A stretch of 37,585 nt of DNA from a virus (Duplodnaviria; Heunggongvirae; Uroviricota; Caudoviricetes). Made by a program: the position numbers and the translations under genes. The stretch lies in the IMG/VR virus record IMGVR_UViG_2675903368_000016; one strand, 5' to 3'. Numbering within the stretch: the stretch's first letter is position 1; every line of letters begins with the position of its first letter. Below the pieces are notes generated by a model, which made no database searches, was not told the origin of the DNA, and saw only the letters and a program-made list of their open reading frames with translations. Shown here piece by piece: positions 10,145 through 36,450 of this stretch.

Positions 10145-10717
10145 TCAGGGGGATTCATTACTCTTATTTGCCGGAAATTTTCTATAAATTGTGGAAACAC
10201 CCACATCAAAAATCAGTGCAATACGCTGTCTTGATTCTCCGGCCTCGAGTAAGCGTCCAATCTGTGCCCACTGTTCGGTGGTCAACTTAGGACGGCGTCC
10301 ACCTACTCTGCCTTTATCACGAGCTGCAGCCAGCCCCGCCCTGGTACGTTCAACTATCAGTTCGCGTTCCATTTCAGCCAGGGCCCCCATGACATGAAAA
10401 AAGAAACGGCCCATTGGGGTGCTGGTATCAATACTGTCAGTCAGGCTTCGGAAATTCACGCCACGCTGACGCAACTCTTCTATCAGCGTAACAAGATGCC
10501 GCATACTGCGCCCCAACCTGTCCAGCTTCCAGACAACCAGAGTGTCTCCTGCCGATAGTGTCCTGAGCAGTTTTTTAAGCCCCGGTCTGTCGGACTTAGT
10601 GCCACTGATTTTGTCCTCAAAAATCCGCTCACATCCCGCGCAGTTCAGTGCATTACGTTGCAAATCTGTGTTCTGGTCATTTGTTGACACGCGTACATAG
10701 CCAATAAGCATGATCAT
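10145..10717 (-). CDS. Serine DNA invertase, Hin/Gin/Pin/Cin family (copy 1)
   Basis: 190-aa ORF M(IM)LIGYVRVSTNDQNTDLQRNAL... with N-terminal catalytic Ser motif and C-terminal HTH; true start may be Met3. Confidence 0.9.
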   Translation of the reverse strand: MIMLIGYVRVSTNDQNTDLQRNALNCAGCERIFEDKISGTKSDRPGLKKLLRTLSAGDTLVVWKLDRLGRSMRHLVTLIEELRQRGVNFRSLTDSIDTSTPMGRFFFHVMGALAEMERELIVERTRAGLAAARDKGRVGGRRPKLTTEQWAQIGRLLEAGESRQRIALIFDVGVSTIYRKFPANKSNESP

Positions 10718-12279: not shown

Positions 12280-12678
12280 CTACCGTCCTATCGAAATATA
12301 ACTGAATCTGTATTGCTGTGAGATATCACTGGTTGCCACACGCCACGCTGAATTACTGATATGTTCAAAATTTACAGACAAAACCTGCGGGGCAGGATTC
12401 GACGGGGCTGACTGAACGGCATCAGACATAACACTGACTGAAACCATCGGCTGATTAGGGAATGGTATAGGGAAGTGTCCACTGATAAAGCGGGTCGTGT
12501 TTCCTGAAAAAGTGCCAAACTGAACAATATATCCACCTGGTAGCCTGAACCATCCCGAACCAGAAGCGAATGCTCCCATATCCGGTATCTGATTATCTCC
12601 TGTGCCCACATCCCTTTTCGCCGCTTCTCCCAAACCAACGTATAAGAAAATGCAGCGATTACGACTAACTGGCATCAT
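12280..12678 (-). CDS. Tail-fibre variable C-terminal module B, stand-alone duplicate copy
   Basis: 132-aa ORF with the same 18-aa leader, then a sequence identical to the C-terminal 114 aa of H. Confidence 0.6.
   Translation of the reverse strand: MMPVSRNRCIFLYVGLGEAAKRDVGTGDNQIPDMGAFASGSGWFRLPGGYIVQFGTFSGNTTRFISGHFPIPFPNQPMVSVSVMSDAVQSAPSNPAPQVLSVNFEHISNSAWRVATSDISQQYRFSYISIGR
12625..12650 (-). other. 26-bp invertase crossover site Y (hybrid site)
   Basis: Plus strand TTCTCCCAAACC-AA-CGTATAAGAAAA; left half identical to site X, right half identical to reverse-complement Z, with identity switching at the central AA. Confidence 0.7.
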
Positions 12679-12699: not shown

Positions 12700-13443
12700 A
12701 TGATCATGCTTATTGGCTATGTACGCGTGTCAACAAATGACCAGAACACAGATTTGCAACGTAATGCACTGAACTGCGCGGGATGTGAGCGGATTTTTGA
12801 GGACAAAATCAGTGGCACTAAGTCCGACAGACCGGGGCTTAAAAAACTGCTCAGGACACTATCGGCAGGAGACACTCTGGTTGTCTGGAAGCTGGACAGG
12901 TTGGGGCGCAGTATGCGGCATCTTGTTACGCTGATAGAAGAGTTGCGTCAGCGTGGCGTGAATTTCCGAAGCCTGACTGACAGTATTGATACCAGCACCC
13001 CAATGGGCCGTTTCTTTTTTCATGTCATGGGGGCCCTGGCTGAAATGGAACGCGAACTGATAGTTGAACGTACCAGGGCGGGGCTGGCTGCAGCTCGTGA
13101 TAAAGGCAGAGTAGGTGGACGCCGTCCTAAGTTGACCACCGAACAGTGGGCACAGATTGGACGCTTACTCGAGGCCGGAGAATCAAGACAGCGTATTGCA
13201 CTGATTTTTGATGTGGGTGTTTCCACAATTTATAGAAAATTTCCGGCAAATAAGAGTAATGAAGTATTTTCCTTCTGGTGCTTCCTTCATAAATTCGGCG
13301 GCAACAGTGTCGTCAATTTCGATTCCATCACCGGGCCATTCGCCGGATTCCTGATAAGCGATTTTAAGCTCCACAGGGAAAAACGCATTTTTATCGGCAC
13401 TGAAAATATATTTCTGCATTTCTACCGTCCTATCGAAATATAA
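12700..13443 (+). CDS. Serine DNA invertase copy 2, C-terminally fused to 59 aa read antisense through a truncated chaperone gene
   Basis: First 188 aa identical to copy 1 (nucleotide identity 12625-13263 = reverse complement of 10154-10792); diverges after ...FPANKSNE. Confidence 0.8.
   Translation: MIMLIGYVRVSTNDQNTDLQRNALNCAGCERIFEDKISGTKSDRPGLKKLLRTLSAGDTLVVWKLDRLGRSMRHLVTLIEELRQRGVNFRSLTDSIDTSTPMGRFFFHVMGALAEMERELIVERTRAGLAAARDKGRVGGRRPKLTTEQWAQIGRLLEAGESRQRIALIFDVGVSTIYRKFPANKSNEVFSFWCFLHKFGGNSVVNFDSITGPFAGFLISDFKLHREKRIFIGTENIFLHFYRPIEI
13264..13419 (-). pseudogene. Truncated tail-fibre assembly chaperone B (first 52 codons only)
   Basis: Sequence identical to the 5' end of the 11837-12277 gene, then abruptly joined to the 3' end of invertase copy 2. 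Confidence 0.7.
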
Positions 13444-20533: not shown

Positions 20534-20565
20534 CCCGTGCCGCCCGTGCGCGGGGGCACGTTCTG

Positions 20566-21216
20566 TCAGCGGCTGTCATTGCGCAGTCTGCGCTCCAGCT
20601 GCTGTTTGTCTTTTTTCACGCCACAGCGGGGATCGAGCTGCAACGCATGGTTGAGATGGTTAAGGGCGGAAGCCGGATTGCTTTCACTCAGGACAGCGCC
20701 AATCGCTTTATGCAGACGCGCCCGTGACTGGTCCGGCATATCCAGACCGTCTGTCAGCTCCAGCGTCTGCAGCAACAGATCGGCATCAAAGCCGGTGGCG
20801 GCAAGCATTGCGCTCTGCGCCGCGTCTGCCATTTCCTCTGCCAGCACGGTCTGCACATTGCGGTTACCCAGTGGCATCACCCAGCCATGACGCAGGGCAT
20901 GACATCCGATCTCCAGCGCCCCGGCATAATCTCCGGCATCAATGCGCCACAGCATCACGTACATCAGCACGTCATCCTGTTGAGTGCCTCCGGCAGCCAG
21001 GACGCCCTCTGCCCAGGCGGCGTACTTCGGCAGCAGCTCCACCTTGATTTCCGCTTTTTTGACCGTGGACTGAACACCCTTGAGACGGCGGCGGTCTTCC
21101 GCCAGTTGCAGCAGCATCAGGTCATAGCCCGACGCGTGGAGAACACTGCCGCCCTCGCGGGCGGCCTGTTCAGCCTGAACGCGCAGGCGATGCTGCCGTG
21201 CGGGACTCAGGCTCAT
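20566..21216 (-). CDS. M: Terminase small (endonuclease) subunit gpM
   Basis: 216-aa ORF downstream of N; P2 order O-N-M-L. Confidence 0.75.
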   Translation of the reverse strand: MSLSPARQHRLRVQAEQAAREGGSVLHASGYDLMLLQLAEDRRRLKGVQSTVKKAEIKVELLPKYAAWAEGVLAAGGTQQDDVLMYVMLWRIDAGDYAGALEIGCHALRHGWVMPLGNRNVQTVLAEEMADAAQSAMLAATGFDADLLLQTLELTDGLDMPDQSRARLHKAIGAVLSESNPASALNHLNHALQLDPRCGVKKDKQQLERRLRNDSR

Positions 21217-21219
21217 GGA

Positions 21220-22277
21220 TTACGCTCCGGTTTCTGCTGCGGCGGCGCTGAAGTCGCCAATCTGGATGTTTTCCACAAGTGCGGCACAGCGGTAGTCCTC
21301 AACCACATAGGCTTCGTTAACGGATTCAAAGTTTTCAATCCGGTCACGTTTCGGGTTGTCGATAACTGAACGGCGGCGGGTGTCTTCCTGCCAGTAGATG
21401 GACAGGTTATCCAGACGGGTGATCAGCAGTGCATTCGGCGGGAAGAACGGTGCACGCACGGCCTGCAGGCCACCCATGCGTTTCTGACTGATGATCATAT
21501 CGGCAGCCAGTTTTTCACTGTTTTCCTGCTCTTTGTTAACCAGCGGGAAATACTTGTCAGACAGCAGTTCACGCCCGCAAATCACCACCAGATCGTCATC
21601 GTCCTGGTAGACCACGTCGATAAGCTCATTGACGGCATCCATCACCACGGCGTCCAGGTTGGCATATTCGCCACCTTTACCGACTTTCACCGCGCCCGGT
21701 GTGGTTTCACCGCCCATGGTGGTGCTGCCCATGACGTGATCCGGTGCTCCTCACGGATTTTCTGCAGCCAGCCTTTGTTCACATCCTGCAGCAGCGGGTT
21801 TTCGCTGCGGTTGGAGGTTTTCGCACGCTTCACGCCGTTAAAGCCGATCATGATGCGGTCCAGTGCCTGACGTTTCACGATGGCGTCACGGATACGCACC
21901 TGGAAATCCTGAAACTTCGCCCACAGGTCCAGCTTCGCGTAGGTCAGTACCGTGTCAAAGTTGGTCTGCTCGCATTTGTATTCCACATCGACCATCAGCG
22001 TAGGATCGACAGGTTCACGCTCTTTCGCGGTGGTGTCAGTGGTTCCGGCAATGGTGCTACCAACACCCAACCCCAGCAGCTGACCGGACTGCTCAGTCAC
22101 TGGCGTGACGTTAATCAGCGTCAGGAAAGCGGCGGACTGCTGGATCTGGTCTTCCAGCGTCTGCTGTACAGACGGCTCCACGGTGAACTTGCTGGACAGT
22201 TCTTCAACTGCCACACCGTTCAGACGCGCCAGCTGCTGCAGGTAAGCGTTAAAAGCAAAGCGGGTATTCTTCTTCAT
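21220..22277 (-). pseudogene. N: Major capsid protein gpN, interrupted by a 1-bp frameshift
   Basis: Two overlapping ORFs (21687-22277 and 21220-21732) together span gpN; the frame breaks at ...LQKIREEH|, and adding one C restores ...EEHPDHVMGSTTMGGETTPGAVKVGKGG.... Confidence 0.8.
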
Positions 22278-22293
22278 CAGGTTTTGTGCTCCA

Positions 22294-23127
22294 TCAGCAA
22301 TTGGTCAGAGTGTCAGCGGGGGCGTTACCGCCTGTTGCACGCTGGCGGTAGTCCTGGCGGCTGTCTTCATGACTCAGCTTATTCACCAGTTCGTTAAAGG
22401 CGGTCTGCTGTGCCTGCAGGGCAGTCTCCAGCTCAGACAGACGTTCTTCCTGCTCAGACAGGGATTTTTCGGTGCGTGCGCTCAGGTTTTGCTGCTCAGT
22501 GGCGACCAACTCCACGGCCTTATGCACATCAGAGAACCGGGCATCGTCGGACTGCTCTTTTTTGGTGAACAGTGCCGTGACGCGGGCAAACAGGGACGGC
22601 TTGTCCTCCTGGATTTCTTCCAGTTCGATCACCGTTTCCTCTGCGGCGGTAAAGAGATTGGCGGGATTCTGCTTGCGGTTTGCCAGCGGGTTATGGGCTG
22701 CACTGGCGCTGAATGTCAGCATTTCAGTGCCCAGACTGGCAGGGTCATCAGTGGCAGCCAGGCCGACCAAGTAGGCTTTGCCCGTATCAGCAAACTTCGG
22801 ACTGACTTCCATAGATGTGAATAATTTCTGGCCTTTTTTCACCAGTTCCACCAGGGATTCCGTTGGCTCAACGTCGGCATACAGCGCCATCTTGCCTGCC
22901 AACGGACCTTCCGTGATTTCTTCAGCAAACAGCGCCGTCACCTTGCCGTAGCGGTTAAAGGTGCTGTCCGGCAGATAAGACTTGATGTGCTCAAGGTTAA
23001 TCAGCGCGGTATACACCGCCGGGTTGTAGCTGGCTGCCATCTGTTCCAGCCATTCACGCTGGATTTCGCGTCCGTCGGTGGTGGCACCTTCCACCCCGAT
23101 GCGAAAACGCTTTGCTTTCACTGTCAT
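22294..23127 (-). CDS. O: Capsid scaffolding protein gpO
   Basis: 277-aa ORF divergent from P; coiled-coil-rich C-terminal part. Confidence 0.8.
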   Translation of the reverse strand: MTVKAKRFRIGVEGATTDGREIQREWLEQMAASYNPAVYTALINLEHIKSYLPDSTFNRYGKVTALFAEEITEGPLAGKMALYADVEPTESLVELVKKGQKLFTSMEVSPKFADTGKAYLVGLAATDDPASLGTEMLTFSASAAHNPLANRKQNPANLFTAAEETVIELEEIQEDKPSLFARVTALFTKKEQSDDARFSDVHKAVELVATEQQNLSARTEKSLSEQEERLSELETALQAQQTAFNELVNKLSHEDSRQDYRQRATGGNAPADTLTNC

Positions 23128-23205
23128 GAGCCGTGCTCCGTTAGAAAAAACTTACTGGAGCCTTATGGTTGCGGTGATGGGGGCAGTGAAACAATGCGCG
23201 GTATT

Positions 23206-23223
23206 TGTACCGACAACCACACA
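23206..23223. promoter_or_regulatory. Candidate Ogr-dependent late promoter element (TGT-N12-ACA) in the divergent O/P intergenic region
   Basis: TGTaccgacaaccacACA, same dyad type as upstream of FI and V. Confidence 0.5.
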
Positions 23224-23269
23224 AACCGCAGGCGGGGAAAGCCTTCATTCAAGGCTGTAGGTTTGTGCC

Positions 23270-25036
23270 ATGAACACCACACTGACACCCGCAGATCTCG
23301 ATCCCCGTCGGCAGGCCATGCTGCTGTACTTTCAGGGATACCGCGTCGCCCGCATTGCTGAAATGCTGGGCGAGAAAGTTGCAACTGTTCACAGCTGGAA
23401 AAAACGCGACAAGTGGGGTGACTATGGGCCGCTGGATCAGATGCAGCTCACCACCGCCGCACGCTACTGCCAGCTCATTATGAAGGAGCACAAAGAAGGG
23501 AAAGATTTCAAAGAGATTGACCTGCTGGCGCGCCAGTCGGAGCGCCACGCGCGGATCGGCAAGTTTAACAATGGCGGCAACGAAGCCGATTTAAACCCTA
23601 ACGTCGCCAACCGCAACAAAGGCCCACGCCGTCAGCCGGAAAAGAATGTTTTCACCGATGAACAGATTGAGAAGCTGGAAGAAATCTTCCATTCCTCCAT
23701 GTTCAACTACCAGCGCCACTGGTGGGAAGCCGGAAAAACCAACCGCATCCGCAACCTGCTGAAGTCACGCCAGATCGGCGCAACCTTCTATTTTGCCCGT
23801 GAAGCCCTGATTGACGCCCTGCTGACCGGACGTAACCAGATTTTCCTTTCCGCCAGCAAGGCACAGGCCCACGTCTTTAAGCAGTACATCTTCGACTTCG
23901 CCAAAGAAGTGGAGGTGGAGCTGAAAGGTGATCCGATGGTGCTTCCTAACGGTGCCACGCTTTACTTCCTCGGCACCAATGCCCGCACTGCCCAGAGTTA
24001 TCACGGCAACCTGTATCTGGATGAATATTTCTGGATACCGAAATTTCAGGAGCTGCGTAAAGTGGCTTCCGGTATGGCTATTCACAAAAAATGGCGACAA
24101 ACCTATTTTTCCACGCCATCAAGCCTGACCCACAGTGCTTATCCGTTCTGGTCCGGTGCGCTGTTCAACCGTGGACGCAACAAAGCCGACAAGGTGGACA
24201 TCGACCTGTCCCACAGCAATCTGGCCCCCGGCCTGCTGTGCGCAGACGGGCAATACCGCCAGATAGTCACCGTGGAAGATGCGGTGCGCGGCGGCTGCAA
24301 CCTGTTCGACCTTGACCAGTTGCGCATGGAGTACAGCCCGGACGAATACCAGAACCTGCTGATGTGCGAGTTTGTGGACGATCTCGCGTCCGTGTTTCCG
24401 CTCAGCGAGCTGCAGGCGTGCATGGTGGACAGTTGGGAAGTCTGGACCGACTTTCATGCACTGGCCCTTCGCCCGTTTGGGTGGCGCGAAGTGTGGATCG
24501 GTTATGACCCGGCAAAAGGTACGCAGAACGGCGACAGCGCCGGATGCGTGGTGGTGGCACCGCCAGCCGTGCCGGGCGGTAAGTTCCGTATTCTTGAGCG
24601 CCACCAGTGGCGCGGGATGGACTTCCGCGCCCAGGCGGACGCCATCAAAAAACTGACCGAACAGTACAACGTGACATATATCGGCATCGACTCGACGGGT
24701 GTCGGTCACGGGGTTTACGAGAACGTGAAAGCGTTTTTTCCTGCCGTCCGGGAGTTTGTCTACAACCCCAACGTTAAAAATGCCCTGGTACTCAAGGCAT
24801 ACGACATTATCAGCCACCGCCGTCTGGAGTTTGACGCCGGGCACACCGACATTGCGCAGTCATTCATGGCAATCCGTCGCGCCACCACCGCCAGTGGCAA
24901 CCGCCCGACCTATGAAGCCAGCCGCAGCGAAGAAGCCAGCCACGCCGATCTGGCCTGGGCAACGATGCACGCACTGTTTAATGAACCGCTGCAGGGCGAG
25001 TCCGCCAATACAAGCAATATTGTGGAGATTTTTTGA
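23270..25036 (+). CDS. P: Terminase large (ATPase) subunit gpP
   Basis: 588-aa ORF divergent from O. Confidence 0.85.
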   Translation: MNTTLTPADLDPRRQAMLLYFQGYRVARIAEMLGEKVATVHSWKKRDKWGDYGPLDQMQLTTAARYCQLIMKEHKEGKDFKEIDLLARQSERHARIGKFNNGGNEADLNPNVANRNKGPRRQPEKNVFTDEQIEKLEEIFHSSMFNYQRHWWEAGKTNRIRNLLKSRQIGATFYFAREALIDALLTGRNQIFLSASKAQAHVFKQYIFDFAKEVEVELKGDPMVLPNGATLYFLGTNARTAQSYHGNLYLDEYFWIPKFQELRKVASGMAIHKKWRQTYFSTPSSLTHSAYPFWSGALFNRGRNKADKVDIDLSHSNLAPGLLCADGQYRQIVTVEDAVRGGCNLFDLDQLRMEYSPDEYQNLLMCEFVDDLASVFPLSELQACMVDSWEVWTDFHALALRPFGWREVWIGYDPAKGTQNGDSAGCVVVAPPAVPGGKFRILERHQWRGMDFRAQADAIKKLTEQYNVTYIGIDSTGVGHGVYENVKAFFPAVREFVYNPNVKNALVLKAYDIISHRRLEFDAGHTDIAQSFMAIRRATTASGNRPTYEASRSEEASHADLAWATMHALFNEPLQGESANTSNIVEIF

Positions 25037-26082
25037 TGGGAAAGAGTAAGAAAAACCGCGCTGCGGCGATGAATCACATCCAGCATAAAAGCCAGACTTC
25101 AGCCGAAGCATTCAGCTTCGGCGATCCCGTTCCTGTTCTGGACCGCCGAGAATTACTGGACTATGTGGAATGCGTACAGATGGACCGTTGGTATGAGCCG
25201 CCCGTCAGCTTTGACGGACTGGCGCGCACCTTCCGCGCCGCCGTGCATCACAGTTCCCCGATTGCAGTAAAGTGCAACATTCTGACCAGTACCTATATCC
25301 CTCATCCGCTGCTCAGCCAGCAGGCTTTTTCGCGTTTTGTGCAGGACTATCTGGTATTTGGTAACGCCTACCTGGAGAAACGCACGAACCGCTTCGGTGA
25401 AGTTATCGCCCTTGAACCGACCCTGGCAAAATACACCCGACGCGGATTAGACCTGGATACCTACTGGTTTGTGCAATACGGCATGACTACGCAGCCGTAT
25501 CAGTTCACGAAAGGCAGCATTTTTCATCTGATGGAACCGGACATCAACCAGGAGATCTACGGCCTGCCCGGTTATCTTTCTGCCATTCCGTCAGCCCTGC
25601 TCAACGAGTCCGCCACGCTGTTCCGCCGCAAGTATTACATTAACGGCAGTCATGCAGGCTTCATCATGTACATGACCGATGCAGCGCAGAACCAGGAGGA
25701 TGTGAACAACCTCCGCAATGCGATGAAAAGCGCCAAAGGTCCTGGTAACTTCCGTAACCTGTTTATGTACTCGCCTAACGGTAAAAAGGACGGGCTTCAG
25801 ATTATCCCGTTGTCAGAAGTGGTGGCGAAGGATGAGTTCCTGAATATCAAGAACGTGAGCCGGGACGACATGATGGCGGCGCATCGTGTGCCGCCACAAA
25901 TGATGGGGATAATGCCTAATAATGTCGGGGGGTTTGGGGATGTAGAAAAGGCAAGCCGTGTCTTTGTCCGCAACGAGTTGATACCTCTGCAGAAACGCCT
26001 ACAGGAACTTAACAACTGGCTGGGCGATGAAGTTATACGTTTCGAGCCGTACACTTTAGATATTCAGAATGAAAAGAAATAA
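25033..26082 (+). CDS. Q: Portal protein gpQ
   Basis: 349-aa ORF overlapping the P stop by 4 nt; P2 order P then Q toward cos. Confidence 0.85.
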   Translation: MMGKSKKNRAAAMNHIQHKSQTSAEAFSFGDPVPVLDRRELLDYVECVQMDRWYEPPVSFDGLARTFRAAVHHSSPIAVKCNILTSTYIPHPLLSQQAFSRFVQDYLVFGNAYLEKRTNRFGEVIALEPTLAKYTRRGLDLDTYWFVQYGMTTQPYQFTKGSIFHLMEPDINQEIYGLPGYLSAIPSALLNESATLFRRKYYINGSHAGFIMYMTDAAQNQEDVNNLRNAMKSAKGPGNFRNLFMYSPNGKKDGLQIIPLSEVVAKDEFLNIKNVSRDDMMAAHRVPPQMMGIMPNNVGGFGDVEKASRVFVRNELIPLQKRLQELNNWLGDEVIRFEPYTLDIQNEKK

Positions 26083-26110
26083 AAGTTAGCGAATAAAAAT
26101 CATTAGCATA

Positions 26111-26131
26111 GGCCGCAAACTGAGCGGCCTT
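26111..26131. terminator. Bidirectional hairpin terminator between Q and the convergent accessory operon
   Basis: Stem AGGCCGC / GCGGCCT with loop AAACTGA; T-rich tracts on both sides. Confidence 0.45.
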
Positions 26132-26136
26132 ATTCA

Positions 26137-26406
26137 TTACCAATTTCTTTTTTCGGAGTTTAGCCAATCACCGCATGGATAATATCTTGACGCCCATTCA
26201 CCTTGTAAACGAGCTACAAACAGAATATCGTTACTATCGACCCTGGCTTGGAGTCCGTCACGCAGTTGAGTTGCGGTCAGCGTTGTATCTACTAACCAAA
26301 ATGATTCAAGATATTTACAGTATGTAAATTGCTTTAGATAGTCAAAAACTTCATCGTAGTTTCTTCCCGGAGCCTTCAAGTCATAGGTTATACAATAAAT
26401 AGCCAT
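26137..26406 (-). CDS. Hypothetical 89-aa protein, accessory cassette gene 4
   Basis: ORF MAIYCITYDLKAPGRNYDEVFDYLKQF...; AT-rich; 4-nt gap to the upstream gene; no confident family assignment. Confidence 0.55.
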   Translation of the reverse strand: MAIYCITYDLKAPGRNYDEVFDYLKQFTYCKYLESFWLVDTTLTATQLRDGLQARVDSNDILFVARLQGEWASRYYPCGDWLNSEKRNW

Positions 26407-26409
26407 TCT

Positions 26410-26655
26410 CTAAGCTCCGCATTTTTTATCATTTGGGGAACATCTTAACCTGCGACATTTGCGGCAATACGATTGAGGGATCAGCCGCTCTCCTTCCATA
26501 GTTCTAAAACCAAACACTTCTTCAATTTTGTTCAAATCACCACTTGCAATAACCCCACAGCAGGGGCAGACAGCCTCAATTTGAAATGCCATGTCTATCT
26601 CCATTCCACATGTTGAATGTAGGGTAATACTTCCTTTCAAGCAAAAATGAGACAA
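26410..26655 (-). CDS. Small zinc-ribbon protein, accessory cassette gene 3
   Basis: C-P-C-C-G ... C-R-K-C-R-R...C...C cysteine pattern; probable true start at internal MAFQIEAV (about 60 aa). Confidence 0.5.
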   Translation of the reverse strand: MSHFCLKGSITLHSTCGMEIDMAFQIEAVCPCCGVIASGDLNKIEEVFGFRTMEGERLIPQSYCRKCRRLRCSPNDKKCGA

Positions 26656-26827
26656 GGATCTTGAAACCTAATTTAAACTTGCTTGCGCGCGCTCGTATCC
26701 CCGCCACGCCTGCCCGCTTTATGTAGTAGTTTTCATGCAGGTGCATGATCTACGCGAAAGCCCGCCAGTTCTGGCGGGCCCTAGCAAAAACGATCCTCAA
26801 ACGATCATGCGATCTCATGCAGCATAG

Positions 26828-27559
26828 TCATGCACGATCATTTGACTCAGCATCTGCTGCACGCTTGCTGCGCGAAGATGCACTTTTACTATCAATCTTT
26901 CGACAGTTCTTTCTATCCCTGGCTTCATTTTCTTTAAATTTGTTATATGTCTCAGTATCAAAAAACGAAATTGTTTCAACCTCATCTTTTGGTATGAGCA
27001 CACGGAAATCTTCGATATTAAGCCGAGACATTCCACTTATCACACCACTATCAAGATAATGTTGGTGATAGTTAGTCGTGATACTAATCGTTAGATCATC
27101 TTTATCCCGATATCCGCTTAACATCGGGAGAAGTTCAAGGTGCTCTGAAAGCCCGTTTTCTAACGCCGGACAAGTAACAAGACCAACATAGATTTTGCGA
27201 GACGACAGAGTTGCTATGATCGGAAACTGTCTTGCGGACGCTTCCATGAGTAATGATTCGAAAGCGTTATTACCCACAGCTTTAGCTAAGGCATCCCAGC
27301 GACGATCTCCACGTGATGTGCGTAACTTATTTCCAAAACCTGAAATCGCAGCGAGGACAATTGAAATCATAACCCATGCTATCTGTTTGATTTCATTTAT
27401 TCTTTGAAGTTTGTCTTTCGATGAAGACAACATGCCATTAAAACTGTCAGGTGTTAGATTCAAGGCATTAGCCAGCCAACGAAACCCTCCGCTGACGTTC
27501 AAAATAAAGGTGAAAAAACCGCCAAGGAGAAAAAAAAACGATACCCCAGGCAGCCACAA
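26828..27559 (-). CDS. Membrane protein of unknown function, accessory cassette gene 2 (distal frame)
   Basis: 243-aa ORF with hydrophobic segments (FFFLLGGFFTFIL; IAWVMISIVLAAISGF) and a charged C-terminal domain; no ATG at the reported start. Confidence 0.55.
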   Translation of the reverse strand: MWLPGVSFFFLLGGFFTFILNVSGGFRWLANALNLTPDSFNGMLSSSKDKLQRINEIKQIAWVMISIVLAAISGFGNKLRTSRGDRRWDALAKAVGNNAFESLLMEASARQFPIIATLSSRKIYVGLVTCPALENGLSEHLELLPMLSGYRDKDDLTISITTNYHQHYLDSGVISGMSRLNIEDFRVLIPKDEVETISFFDTETYNKFKENEARDRKNCRKIDSKSASSRSKRAADAESNDRA

Positions 27560-27671
27560 AAAAATAAGCGTCCCAGCCGTTGGAACGCTTATATCGGTAT
27601 CTTGTTGAAAGTGATAGGTTTACATAAATAAAACCACTAACCAAAATCACTGCTAAAAGTAATGTTGCCAT
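27468..27671 (-). CDS. N-terminal transmembrane segment ORF, probably the 5' part of the same membrane-protein gene in another frame
   Basis: 67-aa ORF MATLLLAVILVSGFIYVNL...; its ATG overlaps the stop of the upstream 71-aa gene (TAATG); joins the 243-aa frame at a T7/T9 homopolymer region. Confidence 0.45.
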   Translation of the reverse strand: MATLLLAVILVSGFIYVNLSLSTRYRYKRSNGWDAYFFVAAWGIVFFSPWRFFHLYFERQRRVSLAG

Positions 27672-27886
27672 TATCTGGTTCTATTAGTTTTCTCTTTTAC
27701 AGTGCTCGTTTTGATGCCTTCAAGCTTATCCATCTGTGCCTTGATGGCATCCATTGCTCTTTTGTTAGACAAGTCTACGGACACAAAACCATCTTTACTA
27801 AGATTGAGTTTGTCCTGGTTCTCTTTAAGAACCCTTGCCAGACGTTCAACTGGGTTACCCAGGCTAAATGCGGCGATGCTTGACAT
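27671..27886 (-). CDS. Hypothetical 71-aa protein, accessory cassette gene 1
   Basis: ORF MSSIAAFSLGNPVERLARVLKENQDKLNL...; first gene of the leftward AT-rich operon. Confidence 0.5.
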   Translation of the reverse strand: MSSIAAFSLGNPVERLARVLKENQDKLNLSKDGFVSVDLSNKRAMDAIKAQMDKLEGIKTSTVKEKTNRTR

Positions 27887-28156
27887 AACTCCCCCTTTTC
27901 ACATGGCGCGGAAGTCTACACTCCGACGCCTACAACCTCAACAGATTATCTTTAAAATTTAGACAACAATATCATCTGTTGATTGCGTTACTTAAACTTA
28001 AGTTCAATGCGCTCGATCATGCAAGCTGTTTCTTAAGAACTGTTAATTTCCTGGCATATATAGTGGTTAAGGTAACAAATTGACACTAACGCCTCGCATA
28101 GCTCGTTGTTCAACCTTGCTGACGCCAGAAGCAAGTTCAGACGCCAGCAACGTTTC

Positions 28157-28390
28157 TTAATGCAGCCAGCTGTCGTCTTCCCACACCTTCTGCATAATTT
28201 TCATCACTTGTTTTCTTTCTTCGTCCAGTTGCAATCCGGTCAGTTCCACACCGTTAGAGCTACCTTTGCGGATACGAATTACCGTTTTGGGATACAGAGG
28301 ACGCAGATTGCGGTAAAGCTCGGATTCAAGGGCGTCCAGGGTAGACTGGCTAATCTTCTGCTCTTTATCGATCATTATTTCAATGCGCAT
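28157..28390 (-). CDS. DinI-family protein (186 Tum-like SOS-inducible anti-repressor module)
   Basis: 77-aa ORF MRIEIMIDKEQKISQSTLDALESELYRNL...KIMQKVWEDDSWLH resembles E. coli DinI along its length; downstream of a LexA box. Confidence 0.75.
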   Translation of the reverse strand: MRIEIMIDKEQKISQSTLDALESELYRNLRPLYPKTVIRIRKGSSNGVELTGLQLDEERKQVMKIMQKVWEDDSWLH

Positions 28391-28401
28391 AAAAAGTCAC
28401 C

Positions 28402-28590
28402 TCAACTGATGACATCCATTGAGCGGTTGTATTCGTGGGTTCTGATTTTTGCCATGAGTTCATCTGTTAGTTCAGAAACCCACTGCAAAGCCAGCCCCTT
28501 CTCTTCATCACTACACTCACTAGCCGCTACAAGCTTAAGAAAAAAATCAATGCGCTGGAGCTTCAAAGACTCCAAAAAATAGTCCTGCAT
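28402..28590 (-). CDS. Small protein co-transcribed with the DinI-like gene (possible Tum N-terminal module)
   Basis: 62-aa ORF starting 42 nt downstream of the LexA box and ending 11 nt before the DinI-like gene. Confidence 0.5.
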   Translation of the reverse strand: MQDYFLESLKLQRIDFFLKLVAASECSDEEKGLALQWVSELTDELMAKIRTHEYNRSMDVIS

Positions 28591-28631
28591 CTTTCCTCCT
28601 ATGACACCAAAGCAATACTGTAAATATAACC

Positions 28632-28650
28632 ACTGTTTATATTTACAGTA
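28632..28650. promoter_or_regulatory. LexA operator (SOS box)
   Basis: aCTGTttatatttACAGta matches CTGT-N8-ACAG with an AT-rich spacer; a second CTGT half-site sits at 28617-28620. Confidence 0.75.
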
Positions 28651-28741
28651 TATAATAATCTTACTGATGTAAAACGTTTTTTACGTTCATCAGCCTGATA
28701 TGCCTGGTATTATTAAGAGCACGAATTGTTAACCCGCGTAA

Positions 28742-31156
28742 TTAATACAGGTTTCGCCACTTATCATCTTCCTGCAAACGCTGGTTCCGATAGAAGATAC
28801 GCAGGCCTGCTCCTGACGGAATACTGCCGCCGCGAAGGAGTAAATCGACCTCTTTCTCGCTACCATCAAATCCTCTGGACTTCAGCTCATAGACGAGCTG
28901 CTGTCGCTGATGGTCTGTAATTCGCTGTTTGTAGTCTTTACGCCGTTTCGGTTTAACCAGGCGTAACCTTGCTGCCAGTTCCCGGCGCTCTTTTTTGCTC
29001 ATACTGTGCAGGTAATCGTGCAACTGCTTGTCATCCATGCGGGTAATGTCCGTTCTGGTGCCCCCATCAGCTGATTTATCTTTCTCCTGTTGGTTCAAAT
29101 TTTCAGCAAGGGGACAGTTATTGCCACGAGTCCAAGGGGCGCAAGCGCCCTGGTCGGCTGCCGCCTCCTGAACGTCAACGGCTTTACGAACCATTTTCCA
29201 CTTCACTGCATGAGTGCAGATCTTGCCCTCTGCAATGGGTGACCAGATGCCATAAATACGAATGCCGTGATCGCCATAGGCGGTCGGCTCTTCGTTGATT
29301 TCATAAGCGGTTCTGATGAGGTGATATTTACGGGGAACCAGTACGCCGCCCTGCTTCATGATGTAGGTGGCAAAACAACCAGCATCAGCAGCAGCCAGAA
29401 TGGCATCAAGACGCGGGTTATCCAGTACCGGCGCACCTGCTTTTTTGTCACCCTGTTGCCTTGCCGCCTGACCAGCCAGCAAGCGAAGTTCACGGTAAGC
29501 CTGACGCCCCGGAATACCAAAGAAGCGGAATTGCTGAACACGATGCAGAGACGCCCAGGCATTCACGTATTCAGCGTTATCACGCAGAGATTTACCCGTT
29601 TCCTTGCTGATCTCGCCAGCCAGACCACGACCGTCAATGTTCTTACTGATATATTTCGCGATGTAGCTTGTCGGCGTTCCTTTGCGCGGGTTAATCAACT
29701 CAGACTTAAAGCGCGGCCCAGTGTTATTGCCCAGCTCCTCGCGGTCTTCACGGATGGCAAACTTACGCAGTAATGCAGTGATGGCACGGCGGTCTTTTTT
29801 GCGCATGAAACACAACAGGTGCCAGTGAACTGTGCCATCATGATGCGGCTCAGCCACCCGCACGCCATACCAGCGCAACCCGGCTTTGTGCATCGCCTTA
29901 CGAAATGCAGCAAACATGCCGACCAGATAATCGCTGCTTTGTCTTACCGTCGCGTTTGTCCAGGTCGGGTTTGGTCTGCCGTTATTTAGCGTGGAATGGA
30001 AACGCGACGGACAGGTGATAGTGTAGAAAACGGCGCAGTCACCGCGCATTTCCGCGATAAGCTCCAGACCTTTAACACAGGCCATCATCTCATTGCGGCG
30101 ATGCGCAGGGTTGCTGCTGCTGGCGTTTACCACATCCTCCATGTCCAGCGTGTCGCCGTCTTCGTTCACCAGTTCATGAGAACGGAAAAACTCCAGCGAC
30201 TTACGGCGCTGCTCACGTTTATGCATCACGGCTTCATAGCTGACATAAGGAGATGCTTTTTTGCTGACCAGGCAAACAGCGCGCAACTGCTCTTCCCGCC
30301 ATTCGCAACGCATCTTCCATAATTTCCGATACCACCAGTCGGCGCACAACATACGCGCCAGCGAACCCGGAATGAGTTCATAGGGCACGGGTTTACGGCG
30401 GTTTCTTTTCCGACGGAGTTGCTCAAACGCAGGTGGGATGACATCCAGACGCAGGGTTTCCGCTGCCACCTTTTCCCATGTCTTGCGGATTTCTTCTGGC
30501 TTAACGTCATCGGTGGCATACAAATCACCACAAGCTGCATCAAGGCACATACTCATATGCGCAGCTACCAGGGTGGACAGGCGTTTCACCTGATCCTGAC
30601 TCATTTCAGGCAGGATCAGCAGGCCGTCCAGCCCTTCATGGCTTGCCATAAAGCGAAAAGATGCAGATAGCTGACTGTCGCGTACATGCTCCAGTCGTTC
30701 CAGACATGGCTTAATCGTCTCACGTAAATAGCGGGAATAAGCCTTTGGCCTGCCCAGGCTGCTGAAGTATTCAATACGTTGCATCAGCGGCTTGCTGATA
30801 TGGGAAGGCTGGGCGTTGACGTCCGCCAGAATGACCATGTCTGAATTAAAACGCTGCTGCTCATGCGCCAGCTTTGCCCGGCTAATGAGCTTATCCTGCT
30901 CCATTTCGCGCTGGACAGGATCACGTGATTCATTAAAGAAATAACGCTCCCAGACCTGATCACTCAGTGCCTCGCGGCGCAACTGTTCCTGCTCGTTATC
31001 GGCAGCGTACAGAGTGATCAGGTTTGAAAGCGTAGAAACCGGCGCAACTTCCGCCGGGTCCAGATAAGGGTTAATGGCCTTTTTCGGGCTGTTCCATGAG
31101 AATGCTGCGGCAGCCTCGTTAAAGCCGCAGCAGTTGTTCATATCGGCATGACTCAT
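28742..31156 (-). CDS. A: Replication initiation protein gpA (rolling-circle nickase)
   Basis: 804-aa ORF at the end of the early operon; size and position fit P2/186 A. Confidence 0.8.
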
Positions 31157-32010
31157 GCACGTACTTCGTACACGGCAGAACTATCCACGCCACGCGAATA
31201 ATCAAATCCCATCCAGCAGCGCGGCCCGGAAACAGCAATGATTTCTGTTGCTGATTTACCCTCGCCAGCTGCCACACCGATGCTGCGTTTTACCTTGATA
31301 TAGTGGTGAGTAAAATTGCGATACAGCGAACGGATCAGGGATGTGTCACTGTTAGAAACAATGACCGGATGTCCTTCTGATGACCGATGTTCAAGAACGG
31401 ATGCCAGGTGATACTGGTCATCTTCAGTGAAACCATCAGTGTGATAGCCGGAAAACACACCGTCATATGGCGGATCGCAATACACCACATCTCCCGCCTT
31501 CAACATCGCCAGCGTTTCATCAAAGCTGGCGCAGATAAACGTTGCTCGCTGGGCTTTTTCTGCAAATGTGCGAAGTTCTTTTTCAGGGAAATACGGATTT
31601 TTATAATTACCGTAGGGAATGTTGAAATGCCCGCTCTTGTTATAGCGACATAAACCACGGTAACCGTGACGATTGAGATACAGGAAATATACCGCTTTCA
31701 TGAAATCAGTAATTTCAGTTGAGCAGTTAAACTCCTGCCTTATGTTGTAATAAGCCACCTCCCTGTTTGCGATCTCAAATAAAACTCTGGCGCGAGATAT
31801 AAACGATTCACAATCAGCGGCAACCTTTTTATAGAGGTTGATTAAATCAGGATTAATATCCGCAACCAGATAGCTGGGATAATCCGTTTCCATCATCACA
31901 GCACAGGAACCCGCGAAAGGTTCAACCAGTCGCGGGCCAGCAGGAAGGTATTTTTTCAGTTCTGGCATAATGGCGGTTTTATTTCCCGCCCATTTCAGGA
32001 TGGTGCTCAT
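31153..32010 (-). CDS. DNA adenine methyltransferase (Dam family)
   Basis: [11 protein letters not shown] (AdoMet-binding region) and DPPY catalytic motif; start at the internal Met overlaps the upstream stop. Confidence 0.8.
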
Positions 32011-32234
32011 ACAGCACCTCCGTTGTAATGTTTGCCTTTCAGTTCTGCGATTTCCTGACAGGTAATGCAAAGCTGCACTCCCGGAATGGCGCGGCGTCGT
32101 GCTGGCGGAATTGGCGCTTCACATTCAATGCAAAGTACGCGTGACACGCCCGGTGATTTGGCACGGGCTGCACGGATATGGCGCTGGCGTTCTTCTTCAA
32201 CGCGCTGCTGTACGAGATCCATTGCATCAGCCAT
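32007..32234 (-). CDS. TraR/DksA-family C4 zinc-finger protein
   Basis: 75-aa ORF with C-x2-C ... C-x2-C (CIECEA...CITCQ). Confidence 0.7.
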   Translation of the reverse strand: MADAMDLVQQRVEEERQRHIRAARAKSPGVSRVLCIECEAPIPPARRRAIPGVQLCITCQEIAELKGKHYNGGAV

Positions 32235-34773: not shown

Positions 34774-36450
34774 ATGAATTCATTTGCCATCGTTATACTC
34801 TTATTAGCATTTCTCGCCCCTGTTCTAGCTGTAATATTATTTAAACAAAGTAAAAAACACAAAGCGGCTATAGATAACCTGACAGCTAACAACATAGCCC
34901 TTTCTAACCAACTGATTGAAAATCAAGAAAAACTAGCACAGACCGTACGAGAATTATCAGAGCTTGAAGGGCGAGCAGCACCATTGTGGCAATACGAAGA
35001 ATTGCACAGCGCAGTAATGGATGCAGAGAATAAGATAAAAAATGCGGACTCAATAGCCAAGCAAAAAATAGATGAAGCCCAAATTAAGGCGGCTAAAACA
35101 GTAAACGAAGCAAATTATCAAGCTCAGATGACAATAAGCAACGCTAATAGCGAAGCTATAGCAATCACCAAAGACGCTCGCGATGCACGCCTGAAAGCCA
35201 AAGAACGTCTTGATAATGCTAATAATAAAGCAAATGAGCTAATCTCAAATGCTAATGACAATGCAGTAAAAATTATTTCTGATGCAGAAGAAAGAGCAAA
35301 GGAGATTGCTGGTTCAGCATATGAAGCTAAAGAGTTTGCAGAAAAATATGAAGCAGTTGCAAAATCAATGAAAAATAAAATTGAAGGTTATGGTGATGAA
35401 TGGATCATCCCTAACCGTAGTGTACTTGATGAGCTGGCAGAAAATTATGAATTTACAGATGCAGGCAAGGAATTACAAAAAGCCAGAGAGTTAACCAAAT
35501 CATTAATAAAAACTAATAAAGCTGCTTCGTGTGATTATGTTGAGCAAAACAGGCGTAATACTGCCATAAACTTTGTTTTGGATGCCTTCAATGGAAGAGT
35601 TGACAGTATTTTATCAAAAGTCAAACACAACAATTTTGGAAAACTTTCCCAAGAAATAAAAGATGCATTTCAACTAGTAAATTACAATGGCTCTGCCTTT
35701 AGGTCCGCAAAAATAAGTGACATCTATCTTCAGGCAAGACTCAACGAGCTAAAATGGGGTGTAGCAGTTAATGAAATTATGCTCGAAGAAAAAGAAGAGC
35801 AAAGAAGGATTAAAGAACAGCTTCGTGAAGAGGAAAGAGCTCGTAGAGAATATGAAAAAGCGATAAAAGAAGCTGAAAAAGAAGAAAAAGCTATTCAGCA
35901 AGCTATAAATAAAGCAACGAAAGAACTTATGCTTGCAAATGAAGAACAACGCTTAGCTTTAGAGCAAAAAATAGCTGAACTACAGTTAAAATATGAAGAA
36001 GCTGAAGCTAAAAATCAACGAGCTATTTCTATGGCTCAACAAACCAGATCAGGCCACGTCTATATCATTAGTAATATTGGTTCATTTGGCGAAGATGTAT
36101 ATAAAATTGGAATGACACGCCGCCTTGAACCACTTGATCGTGTTCGTGAACTCGGAGATGCTAGTGTTCCTTTTTCGTTCGATGTTCATGCGATGATTTA
36201 TAGTGATGATGCACCATCATTAGAAAACCATCTGCATAAAGTTTTCAACGAAAAGCAGGTCAATAAAATTAACTCACGAAAAGAGTTTTTTAACGTAAAT
36301 TTAAAAGAAATCAAATCAGTTATTGAAGACATGAACATCAACGCCCACTGGACAATGTTTGCAGAGGCGAAAGAATATAGAGAGTCTCTAGCTATTGAGC
36401 AGGAGCGCAAAGCAGCCACTTCCGCCAACGATGAACTACATGTTGCTTAG
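34774..36450 (+). CDS. Membrane-anchored coiled-coil protein with C-terminal GIY-YIG-like (T5orf172-type) domain; lysogeny-operon moron
   Basis: 558 aa: N-terminal TM helix, long coiled coil rich in A/E/K/N, C-terminal GHVYIISN...YKIGMTRRLEPLDRVRELG...; AT-rich; 20 nt after the cI stop. Confidence 0.7.
   Translation: MNSFAIVILLLAFLAPVLAVILFKQSKKHKAAIDNLTANNIALSNQLIENQEKLAQTVRELSELEGRAAPLWQYEELHSAVMDAENKIKNADSIAKQKIDEAQIKAAKTVNEANYQAQMTISNANSEAIAITKDARDARLKAKERLDNANNKANELISNANDNAVKIISDAEERAKEIAGSAYEAKEFAEKYEAVAKSMKNKIEGYGDEWIIPNRSVLDELAENYEFTDAGKELQKARELTKSLIKTNKAASCDYVEQNRRNTAINFVLDAFNGRVDSILSKVKHNNFGKLSQEIKDAFQLVNYNGSAFRSAKISDIYLQARLNELKWGVAVNEIMLEEKEEQRRIKEQLREEERARREYEKAIKEAEKEEKAIQQAINKATKELMLANEEQRLALEQKIAELQLKYEEAEAKNQRAISMAQQTRSGHVYIISNIGSFGEDVYKIGMTRRLEPLDRVRELGDASVPFSFDVHAMIYSDDAPSLENHLHKVFNEKQVNKINSRKEFFNVNLKEIKSVIEDMNINAHWTMFAEAKEYRESLAIEQERKAATSANDELHVA

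Follow-up and report, generated by a model that had tools for sequence, protein, structure and literature searches.

The locus considered here raises the question of whether two neighbouring hydrophobic reading frames on the minus strand are the halves of one gene and, if so, what separated them. The window, i.e., the whole 37,585-nt stretch of DNA that was analysed, is a segment of the E. coli chromosome (grxA-ybjM-ybjL) with a P2-family prophage. The first frame, a 67-aa ORF at 27671–27468, begins with an ATG that overlaps the TAA of an upstream 71-aa gene (27671–27886, minus strand; WP_000094764.1, phrog_9843) as TAATG. The second, a 243-aa ORF given by a mechanical ORF list at 27559–26828 of the same strand, lies in another frame, which is also the frame of the 71-aa gene. 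An earlier note, made from the sequence, had described the ATG at 27671 as coupled to the upstream gene via TAATG and the two parts as plausible pieces of a single protein in different frames, and all three points are borne out. That note left four causes side by side, namely phase variation, a programmed frameshift, true inactivation and a homopolymer sequencing error. We favor true inactivation by replication slippage: the T9 run at this locus is probably an inherited slippage mutation in an E. coli P2-like prophage gene, which is now a pseudogene in a lineage with a decaying prophage.

That the two frames belong to one gene follows from its relatives, in which a single ORF encodes a protein of 280 aa (843 nt; WP_021556032.1/WP_000212611.1 type, phrog_3630). 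A tblastn search of the window with this intact protein placed query residues 1–47 in one frame and residues 46–280 in another, with 99.6–100% identity. The whole frameshifted gene therefore spans 26828–27671 on the minus strand (844 nt including the stop). The intact allele matches phrog_3630, a ~270-aa membrane protein with a C-terminal Sm-like domain, over residues 1–270 (E = 9e-99). Its close homologues form 57 clusters, all from Gammaproteobacteria and nearly all ~240–295 aa long, while a profile search returned 2,891 representatives at 50% identity, most of the 150 listed being 240–300 aa long with end-to-end matches. The homologue alignment is continuous over the frame junction.

The site of the frame switch was then located by comparison. 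The two frames are both open over ~27616–27468, and since this overlap holds three T-runs, T9 at 27530–27538, T7 at 27558–27564 and T6 at 27513–27518 (all minus strand), the window by itself does not single out one of them. Comparison with intact alleles places the switch at the T9 run, not at the T7 run. The earlier note was thus right that both runs exist and that the switch lies in their region, but it gave coordinates 2 nt off for each (T9 at 27528–27536, T7 at 27560–27566), and the T7 run is intact in the window, where it forms the U-tract of a conserved hairpin. The T6 run, which the earlier note did not mention, shows no length variation. The T9 run (A9 on the plus strand) is the longest homopolymer of the window, in which the only other run of at least 8 nt is a T8 at 1185–1192. 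Passing from the 5′ frame to the distal frame takes the skipping of one base (+1, equivalent to −2), so that T9 minus one T gives a single 843-nt ORF. In intact alleles the codons read ATC GTT TTT TTT CTC (I-V-F-F-L), and the T8 run lies inside V45-F46-F47-L48.

A census of alleles showed how exceptional this extra T is. A search of complete E. coli genomes with a 1,201-nt region gave 52 full-length matches; nearly all of the 40 matches listed span 1,200 nt and carry two annotated genes of 216 nt and 843 nt. In direct alignment there is one relevant difference, T9 in the window vs. T8 in the intact alleles. The tract is T8 in 49 of 50 complete E. coli genomes (one T7, no T9), in 13 of 14 IMG/VR contigs (one T9, no T7) and in all six metagenome contigs, which amounts to ~68–70 T8 alleles, one T7 allele and one T9 lineage among E. 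coli-type alleles overall. The T7 allele is that of strain MIN9, in which the gene is likewise split. T7, T8 and T9 are thus all found at one tract, i.e., a length-variable simple repeat inside coding sequence. An exact-pattern scan of genome contigs did not find the E. coli-type allele. As judged from aligned sequences, the T8 run belongs to the E. coli allele alone: elsewhere it is broken by GTC TTT TTC, which encodes the same peptide, or by codons for V-F-V, and it is interrupted in Klebsiella-phage, Pectobacterium, Enterobacter and Shewanella orthologues. The comparison with homologues, which the earlier note had proposed as a check, accordingly finds intact T8 alleles to be the rule and the relatives to be single ORFs.

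The consequences of the insertion depend on the architecture of the intact protein. Hydropathy and an AlphaFold2 (AF2) model (pLDDT 78) give three transmembrane (TM) helices at residues ~2–23, 34–60 and 92–115, and positive charge is found in the loop after TM1 and in the segment after TM3, implying a predicted N-out/C-in topology. In the model, the C-terminal domain combines an N-terminal helix with a strongly bent five-stranded barrel and can be superposed on Sm proteins, these being the features by which Sm/LSm/Hfq folds are recognized, and is thus predicted to be a cytoplasmic Sm/LSm-like β-barrel. A search of a viral structure library returned generic Sm-like matches only. MscS-type mechanosensitive channels also combine three TM helices with an Sm-like β domain; this candidate was rejected, as neither a structural nor a sequence match to MscS was found. 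The AF2 model of the 71-aa partner (pLDDT 62) is of too low confidence for use.

On this basis, we propose the following course of events. The ancestral locus would have comprised a gene for a 71-aa soluble protein translationally coupled to a gene for a 280-aa inner-membrane protein, and one T would have been added to the T8 run of the latter, most likely through strand slippage during replication. The translatable 5′ ORF of the T9 allele (27468–27671, minus strand) encodes 47 native residues, comprising TM1 and half of TM2, followed by 20 out-of-frame residues and a TAA. Ribosomes would thus lose the native frame beyond F47, halfway through TM2, and terminate after another 20 codons, yielding a 67-aa stub and leaving 233 C-terminal codons untranslated. 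The distal in-frame part (26828–27529, minus strand; L48–A280), which has no linked start codon, encodes the rest of TM2, TM3 and the predicted cytoplasmic Sm-like domain. Because the frameshift cuts inside TM2, TM3 and the whole soluble domain would be lost, and the gene would be a pseudogene in the T9 lineage. As U9 runs are slippery for RNA polymerase, the T9 allele may be leaky rather than null, with a small amount of full-length protein arising by RNA-polymerase slippage or +1 ribosomal slippage on U9. Little leakage is to be expected, because the frame is restored only by −1 U or +2 U, whereas at A/T runs the E. coli RNA polymerase inserts bases for the most part (PMC5574713).

The condition of the rest of the prophage is consistent with this course of events. 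When 50 annotated genes of relatives were translated and searched against the window, 48 were uninterrupted, the two exceptions being the membrane-protein gene and the major capsid gene N. Gene N has lost 1 nt at ~21747, outside any homopolymer (GGTGC-TCCTC vs. GGTGCATCCTC); this deletion is absent from seven other prophages and is shared with an IMG/VR contig, L015 (IMGVR_UViG_2695420532_000006). This same contig has the T9 run, and it matches window positions 20551–32139 (11,589 nt) with no gaps and a single mismatch, such that both lesions are directly observed in a sister sequence. The best reading of the two lesions together is a clonal lineage with a prophage that is decaying as a whole. 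With the capsid gene broken as well, annotation should mark the prophage as probably defective and 26828–27671 as one frameshifted pseudogene, not as two hypothetical genes.

The same observations bear on a sequencing or assembly error, according to which the organism in fact has T8 and an intact gene. Homopolymers of 8–9 bases are classic miscall sites, and none of the complete RefSeq E. coli genomes examined has T9. The exact 67-aa product was also found in an assembly of SRA run ERR178183, on a 1,517-nt contig that is 100% identical to the window and carries T9; the window, L015 and ERR178183 nonetheless constitute one near-identical lineage, may not represent independent sequencing, and possibly go back to a single isolate or even to one set of reads. 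Against an error stands, first, the quality of the assembly. Over 10.9 kb, the window and its closest relative, L006 (99.85% identity), differ by no indel other than the extra T, and no other homopolymer indel was found in the coding sequence of the window by comparison with close relatives, including at the T8 run in ybjL, which encodes a 100% identical protein. Together with the 48 intact genes, this makes an error-prone assembly unlikely. Second, the capsid lesion lies outside any homopolymer and is common to L015. Third, T9 recurs in ERR178183, which was assembled separately. A miscalled tract is therefore an unlikely, though not negligible, account of the split.

A further alternative is a contingency locus, in which the T-runs would switch a membrane effector that is costly or toxic reversibly ON and OFF, by slipped-strand phase variation. 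The distribution of the breaks lends this idea some substance. Orthologues in viral contigs are broken in 3 of 79 cases, namely in the T9 lineage (L067), in L113, where the T7 run has become T8, and in L077, where a base is inserted in the T7 run. Adding MIN9 brings the number of independent frame-breaking events to four, and all of them fall within 30 nt, on the two T-runs, a clustering that a switch would produce as well. In the remainder of the gene, the genome and viral-contig alleles that were fetched show neither a frame-breaking nor a truncating change; the metagenome protein P0015, which is of low quality, departs from this pattern. A long-read undercall was considered for the T7 run of MIN9 and rejected, given that its prophage shows no excess of homopolymer indels and the assembly is not prone to such errors; the other frameshift of MIN9 is outside a homopolymer, and the T7 allele is thus probably real.

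However, off-frame alleles make up ~3%, whereas true contingency loci mix ON and OFF states, and the T8 run is confined to the E. coli allele and interrupted in orthologues. Runs of T7–T9 are, moreover, short for A/T-tract phase variation in a host proficient in mismatch repair. The T7 run is conserved for another reason, as the U-tract of a hairpin, and the OFF allele of the window sits in a prophage that is decaying anyway. In comparison with the phase-variable loci of Haemophilus, Neisseria and Campylobacter, which use poly-G/C or poly-A/T tracts, the locus is alike in having a homopolymer of variable length towards the 5′ end of a gene for a surface or membrane protein, but differs in that its tract is short, is not conserved among orthologues and is OFF in only ~3% of alleles. 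The pattern of breaks fits mutational hotspots under purifying selection, not a maintained switch, and phase variation is quite unlikely here. The frameshift resembles instead the homopolymer-slippage pseudogenes known from prophage and accessory genes, which share with it a +1 change in a mononucleotide run, a truncated product, a predominant intact allele and a second inactivating lesion in the same prophage. Nothing essential sets it apart from this class; the only unusual feature is the clustering of breaks at two T-runs, one of them in a conserved RNA element.

This element is the hairpin that precedes the T7 run. A terminator scan matched positions 27592–27564 with the T-run directly after, corresponding to a 12-bp stem of AUAAGCGUUCCA and UGGGACGCUUAU with a 5-nt loop (AACGG) and the tail UUUUUUG, which lies at codons 26–36 of the membrane-protein gene (27564–27592, minus strand). 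Its minimum free energy is −18.1 kcal/mol (z = −3.3). The hairpin is present in every orthologue of the Enterobacterales/Aeromonas clade, down to ~40% protein identity. Across 39 distinct sequences, 93–94% of cells are paired vs. 29–47% when the partner is slid, and two pairs show compensatory changes (U-A to C-G in seven sequences, U-G to G-C in one), some of which cost amino acids (D to G/S/H, S to A). The observed pairing or covariation was reached in none of 500 shuffles.

Codon usage points in the same direction. The normalised synonymous entropy of the six stem and U-run codons is 0.12 vs. 0.82 for 71 other conserved codons, a value as low being found in none of 100,000 random codon sets, and the four most constrained codons of the gene all lie within the hairpin element. 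The Vibrio-group orthologues keep the peptide motif and have no hairpin, showing that the peptide does not force the nucleotide sequence. Comparative sequence evidence thus argues that the pairing is conserved beyond the requirement of the protein. The tails of orthologues are U7 or UUAUUUUUAU, i.e., U-richness is kept and homopolymer length is not, which favors a terminator or attenuator over a slippage site. An Rfam search with the hairpin gave no family. The hairpin and its U-tract look like a putative intragenic terminator or attenuator, with the canonical anatomy of intrinsic (Rho-independent) terminators: a hairpin of 9–12 bp and −16 to −18 kcal/mol with U6–7 directly after it. Unlike these, it lies ~75–115 nt inside coding sequence, not in a leader or a 3′ UTR, and translating ribosomes should therefore mask it.

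A broader role may be imagined, in which the 5′ end of the gene is a built-in expression gate. The hairpin and U7 run, masked only while ribosomes keep close behind the polymerase, would hold a potentially toxic effector at a low level, tied to translation, relative to its 71-aa partner; the T-runs would add replicative and transcriptional slippage as a means of switching off or leaking; and T9, far from being dead DNA, would represent one setting of a regulated, switchable module for anti-phage defence or exclusion. We regard this gate as rather doubtful. The hairpin and the cassette do make it possible to test, at little cost, how phages hold down the expression of a membrane effector gene.

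The hairpin also enters into a programmed-recoding account, in which the gene works as split and the full-length protein arises through +1 frameshifting or transcriptional slippage on U9. Nine A/T is a length at which polymerase slippage is efficient (PMC1088944, PMC5009743), the T9 run has the conserved hairpin 26 nt upstream, and PMC5009743 cites Penno 2015 for hairpins that can stimulate slippage. The hairpin directly before a U-tract is, as that work is cited there, an arrangement shared with the hairpin-stimulated slippage site of Roseiflexus IS630. Yet the hairpin of the present gene abuts the T7 run, not the T9 run. The locus likewise resembles genes expressed by transcriptional slippage (Shigella mxiE with T9, Thermus dnaX with A9, IS elements) and "savior indel" compensation in that nine sense-strand Ts lie between overlapping frames that could in principle be fused (PMC1088944, PMC5009743). 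In those genes, in contrast, the split and the run are conserved and required, whereas here the split is rare and derived: the two-ORF arrangement is not conserved, with ~70 E. coli-type alleles and thousands of relatives having a single ORF, and neither is the slippery run. In addition, the needed change (−1 U or +2 U) is in the direction unfavoured in E. coli, whose polymerase mostly inserts (PMC5574713). Programmed recoding is thus very unlikely. The remaining option, which the earlier note had listed as a refutation, is that the 67-aa peptide and the 243-aa protein are products of separate genes, and it can be dismissed: both ORFs are in the mechanical list and PGAP gives two CDSs for the similarly broken MIN9 allele, but the TTG start of the distal ORF owes its place to the ORF rule, the first 10 residues of that ORF are read out of frame, homologue alignments pass through the junction and every intact relative has one ORF.

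With a slippage-derived pseudogene as the preferred reading, the frameshift itself is routine; it points, nevertheless, to a widespread and unnamed two-gene phage moron, a predicted three-TM Sm-like protein and a small partner, in the P2 defence hotspot. The locus has gpA/DinI on one side and the portal gene (Q) on the other, in a cos-proximal position. The same gpA–gpQ interval next to cos is the P2 defence hotspot (Rousset 2022, PMC9122126), and Table S5A of that study lists the pair as "hypothetical + hypothetical", beside varied cargo that includes SieB, PIN_12 and DUF262 (PMC9122126). A literature search with the accessions and PHROG identifiers found no paper mentioning them. Scans of Pfam, NCBIfam and PADLOC with the repaired protein, the partner and 10 distant relatives gave nothing significant, the best PADLOC match having E = 0.14. 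A sub-threshold DUF6338 match in one relative was the sole hint from these scans. Some NCBI records name the partner "multidrug ABC transporter ATPase", a name that the family scans did not support. Downstream, an inverted repeat, GGGCCCGCCAGAACTGGCGGGC followed by TTTCGCG (26753–26781, minus strand), lies 47 nt after the stop of the membrane-protein gene and is, from its sequence, a candidate operon terminator; a simple terminator scan did not flag it because its T-tail is short.

We note three likenesses between the cassette and the P2-hotspot systems (old, tin, PARIS) or membrane-effector abortive-infection systems. First, it occupies the same locus, gpA–gpQ next to cos. Second, it is a small cassette of a membrane protein and a small partner. 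Third, it moves between phage types and lies beside swappable defence cargo (SEFIR, AAA ATPase, DitB-like, SieB, PIN). It differs from these systems in having no PADLOC, Pfam or NCBIfam match and in not being among the validated systems of Rousset. From its position and behaviour, we tentatively suggest that the membrane protein is an effector of phage exclusion or of an abortive-infection type and its small partner a regulator, a reading whose chance of being right we place somewhat below even. A SEFIR gene beside the pair in some relatives raised the suspicion of a link to the validated AC1 "2TM+1TM+TIR" system; compared by eye, the cassette proteins show no evident similarity to the AC1 proteins and appear unrelated to them.

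The 71-aa and 280-aa pair behaves as a mobile moron cassette. In relatives, the pair stays by DinI and the cargo on the portal side is swapped, being an AAA ATPase, a DitB-like protein, a SEFIR protein or three hypothetical genes. Three further settings show the same order, a small ORF and then the membrane gene: a Pectobacterium chromosome, where a lone DinI gene is the neighbour; the flank of a Shewanella prophage; and, in a lambda-like Enterobacter prophage, a site between tail genes. The small ORFs at these sites are 42% (Pectobacterium), 33% (Enterobacter) and only 15% (Shewanella) identical to the partner.

In two further IMG/VR orthologues of the membrane-protein gene, the frame is broken at the T7 run, by a change from T7 to T8 in L113 and by one base inserted inside the run in L077; every frame-breaking allele known for this gene therefore falls within one of two T-runs, which lie 20 nt apart. 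The T7 run is the U-tract of a conserved hairpin plus U-tract element (27558-27592, minus strand), which lies within codons 26-38 of the gene and whose synonymous sites are almost frozen. Among 39 distinct orthologue sequences the hairpin shows compensatory changes; the Vibrio-group orthologues keep the peptide motif and lack the element. This element, which matched no family in Rfam, resembles a terminator or attenuator.

The 71-aa partner protein (27671-27886, minus strand) is named 'multidrug ABC transporter ATPase' in several NCBI records. Because none of the family scans of this protein backs that name, it looks like a propagated misannotation. A near-consensus LexA box, TACTGTAAATATAAACAGTG (28633-28648, with flanks 28629-28650, minus strand), is the sole CTGT-N8-ACAG match within the window and lies immediately upstream of a 62-aa ORF and a DinI-like gene, which suggests that this accessory operon is under SOS control.

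On the other side of the membrane-protein gene, the motif GGCGTGGCGGGGATACGAGC at 26691-26710 is cos-like, resembling the P2 cos core. The complement of that core is found in the P2 sequence of the supplement to the P2 defence hotspot study (Rousset 2022, PMC9122126). Homology to relatives ends directly beside the motif, at the breakpoint 26685/26686, so the 71-aa/280-aa pair lies on the gpA side of cos and the swappable cargo on its portal side. The variable cargo of this prophage consists of two small genes (26137-26655, minus strand), encoding an 81-aa protein with a zinc-ribbon-like CxxC...CxxC pattern (phrog_19700) and an 89-aa protein weakly similar to Cas2 (PADLOC Cas2b, E 5e-4; phrog_1090). 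Neither gene was assigned to a known system.

The major capsid gene, of P2 gpN type (21223-22277, minus strand), is split at ~21747, where one nucleotide has been lost outside any homopolymer (GGTGC-TCCTC vs. GGTGCATCCTC). This deletion is common only to the window and the sister contig L015, the gene being intact in 7 other prophages. The prophage in the window is probably defective.

A Cin/Hin-type recombinase gene occurs twice, in inverted orientation (10148-10711, minus strand; 12706-13263, plus strand), on either side of a segment of tail-fibre and tail-fibre-assembly genes, and fibre C-terminal pieces are duplicated at 12283-12651. This layout is either an unusual duplicated invertible-segment arrangement or two orientations assembled together.

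A second accessory or defence slot of the prophage, flanked by the CI repressor and integrase genes, contains a gene (34774-36447, plus strand) for a 558-aa protein. This protein is 100% identical to an NCBI protein named 'SNIPE associated domain-containing protein', and a near-identical counterpart in another strain carries the name DUF4041.
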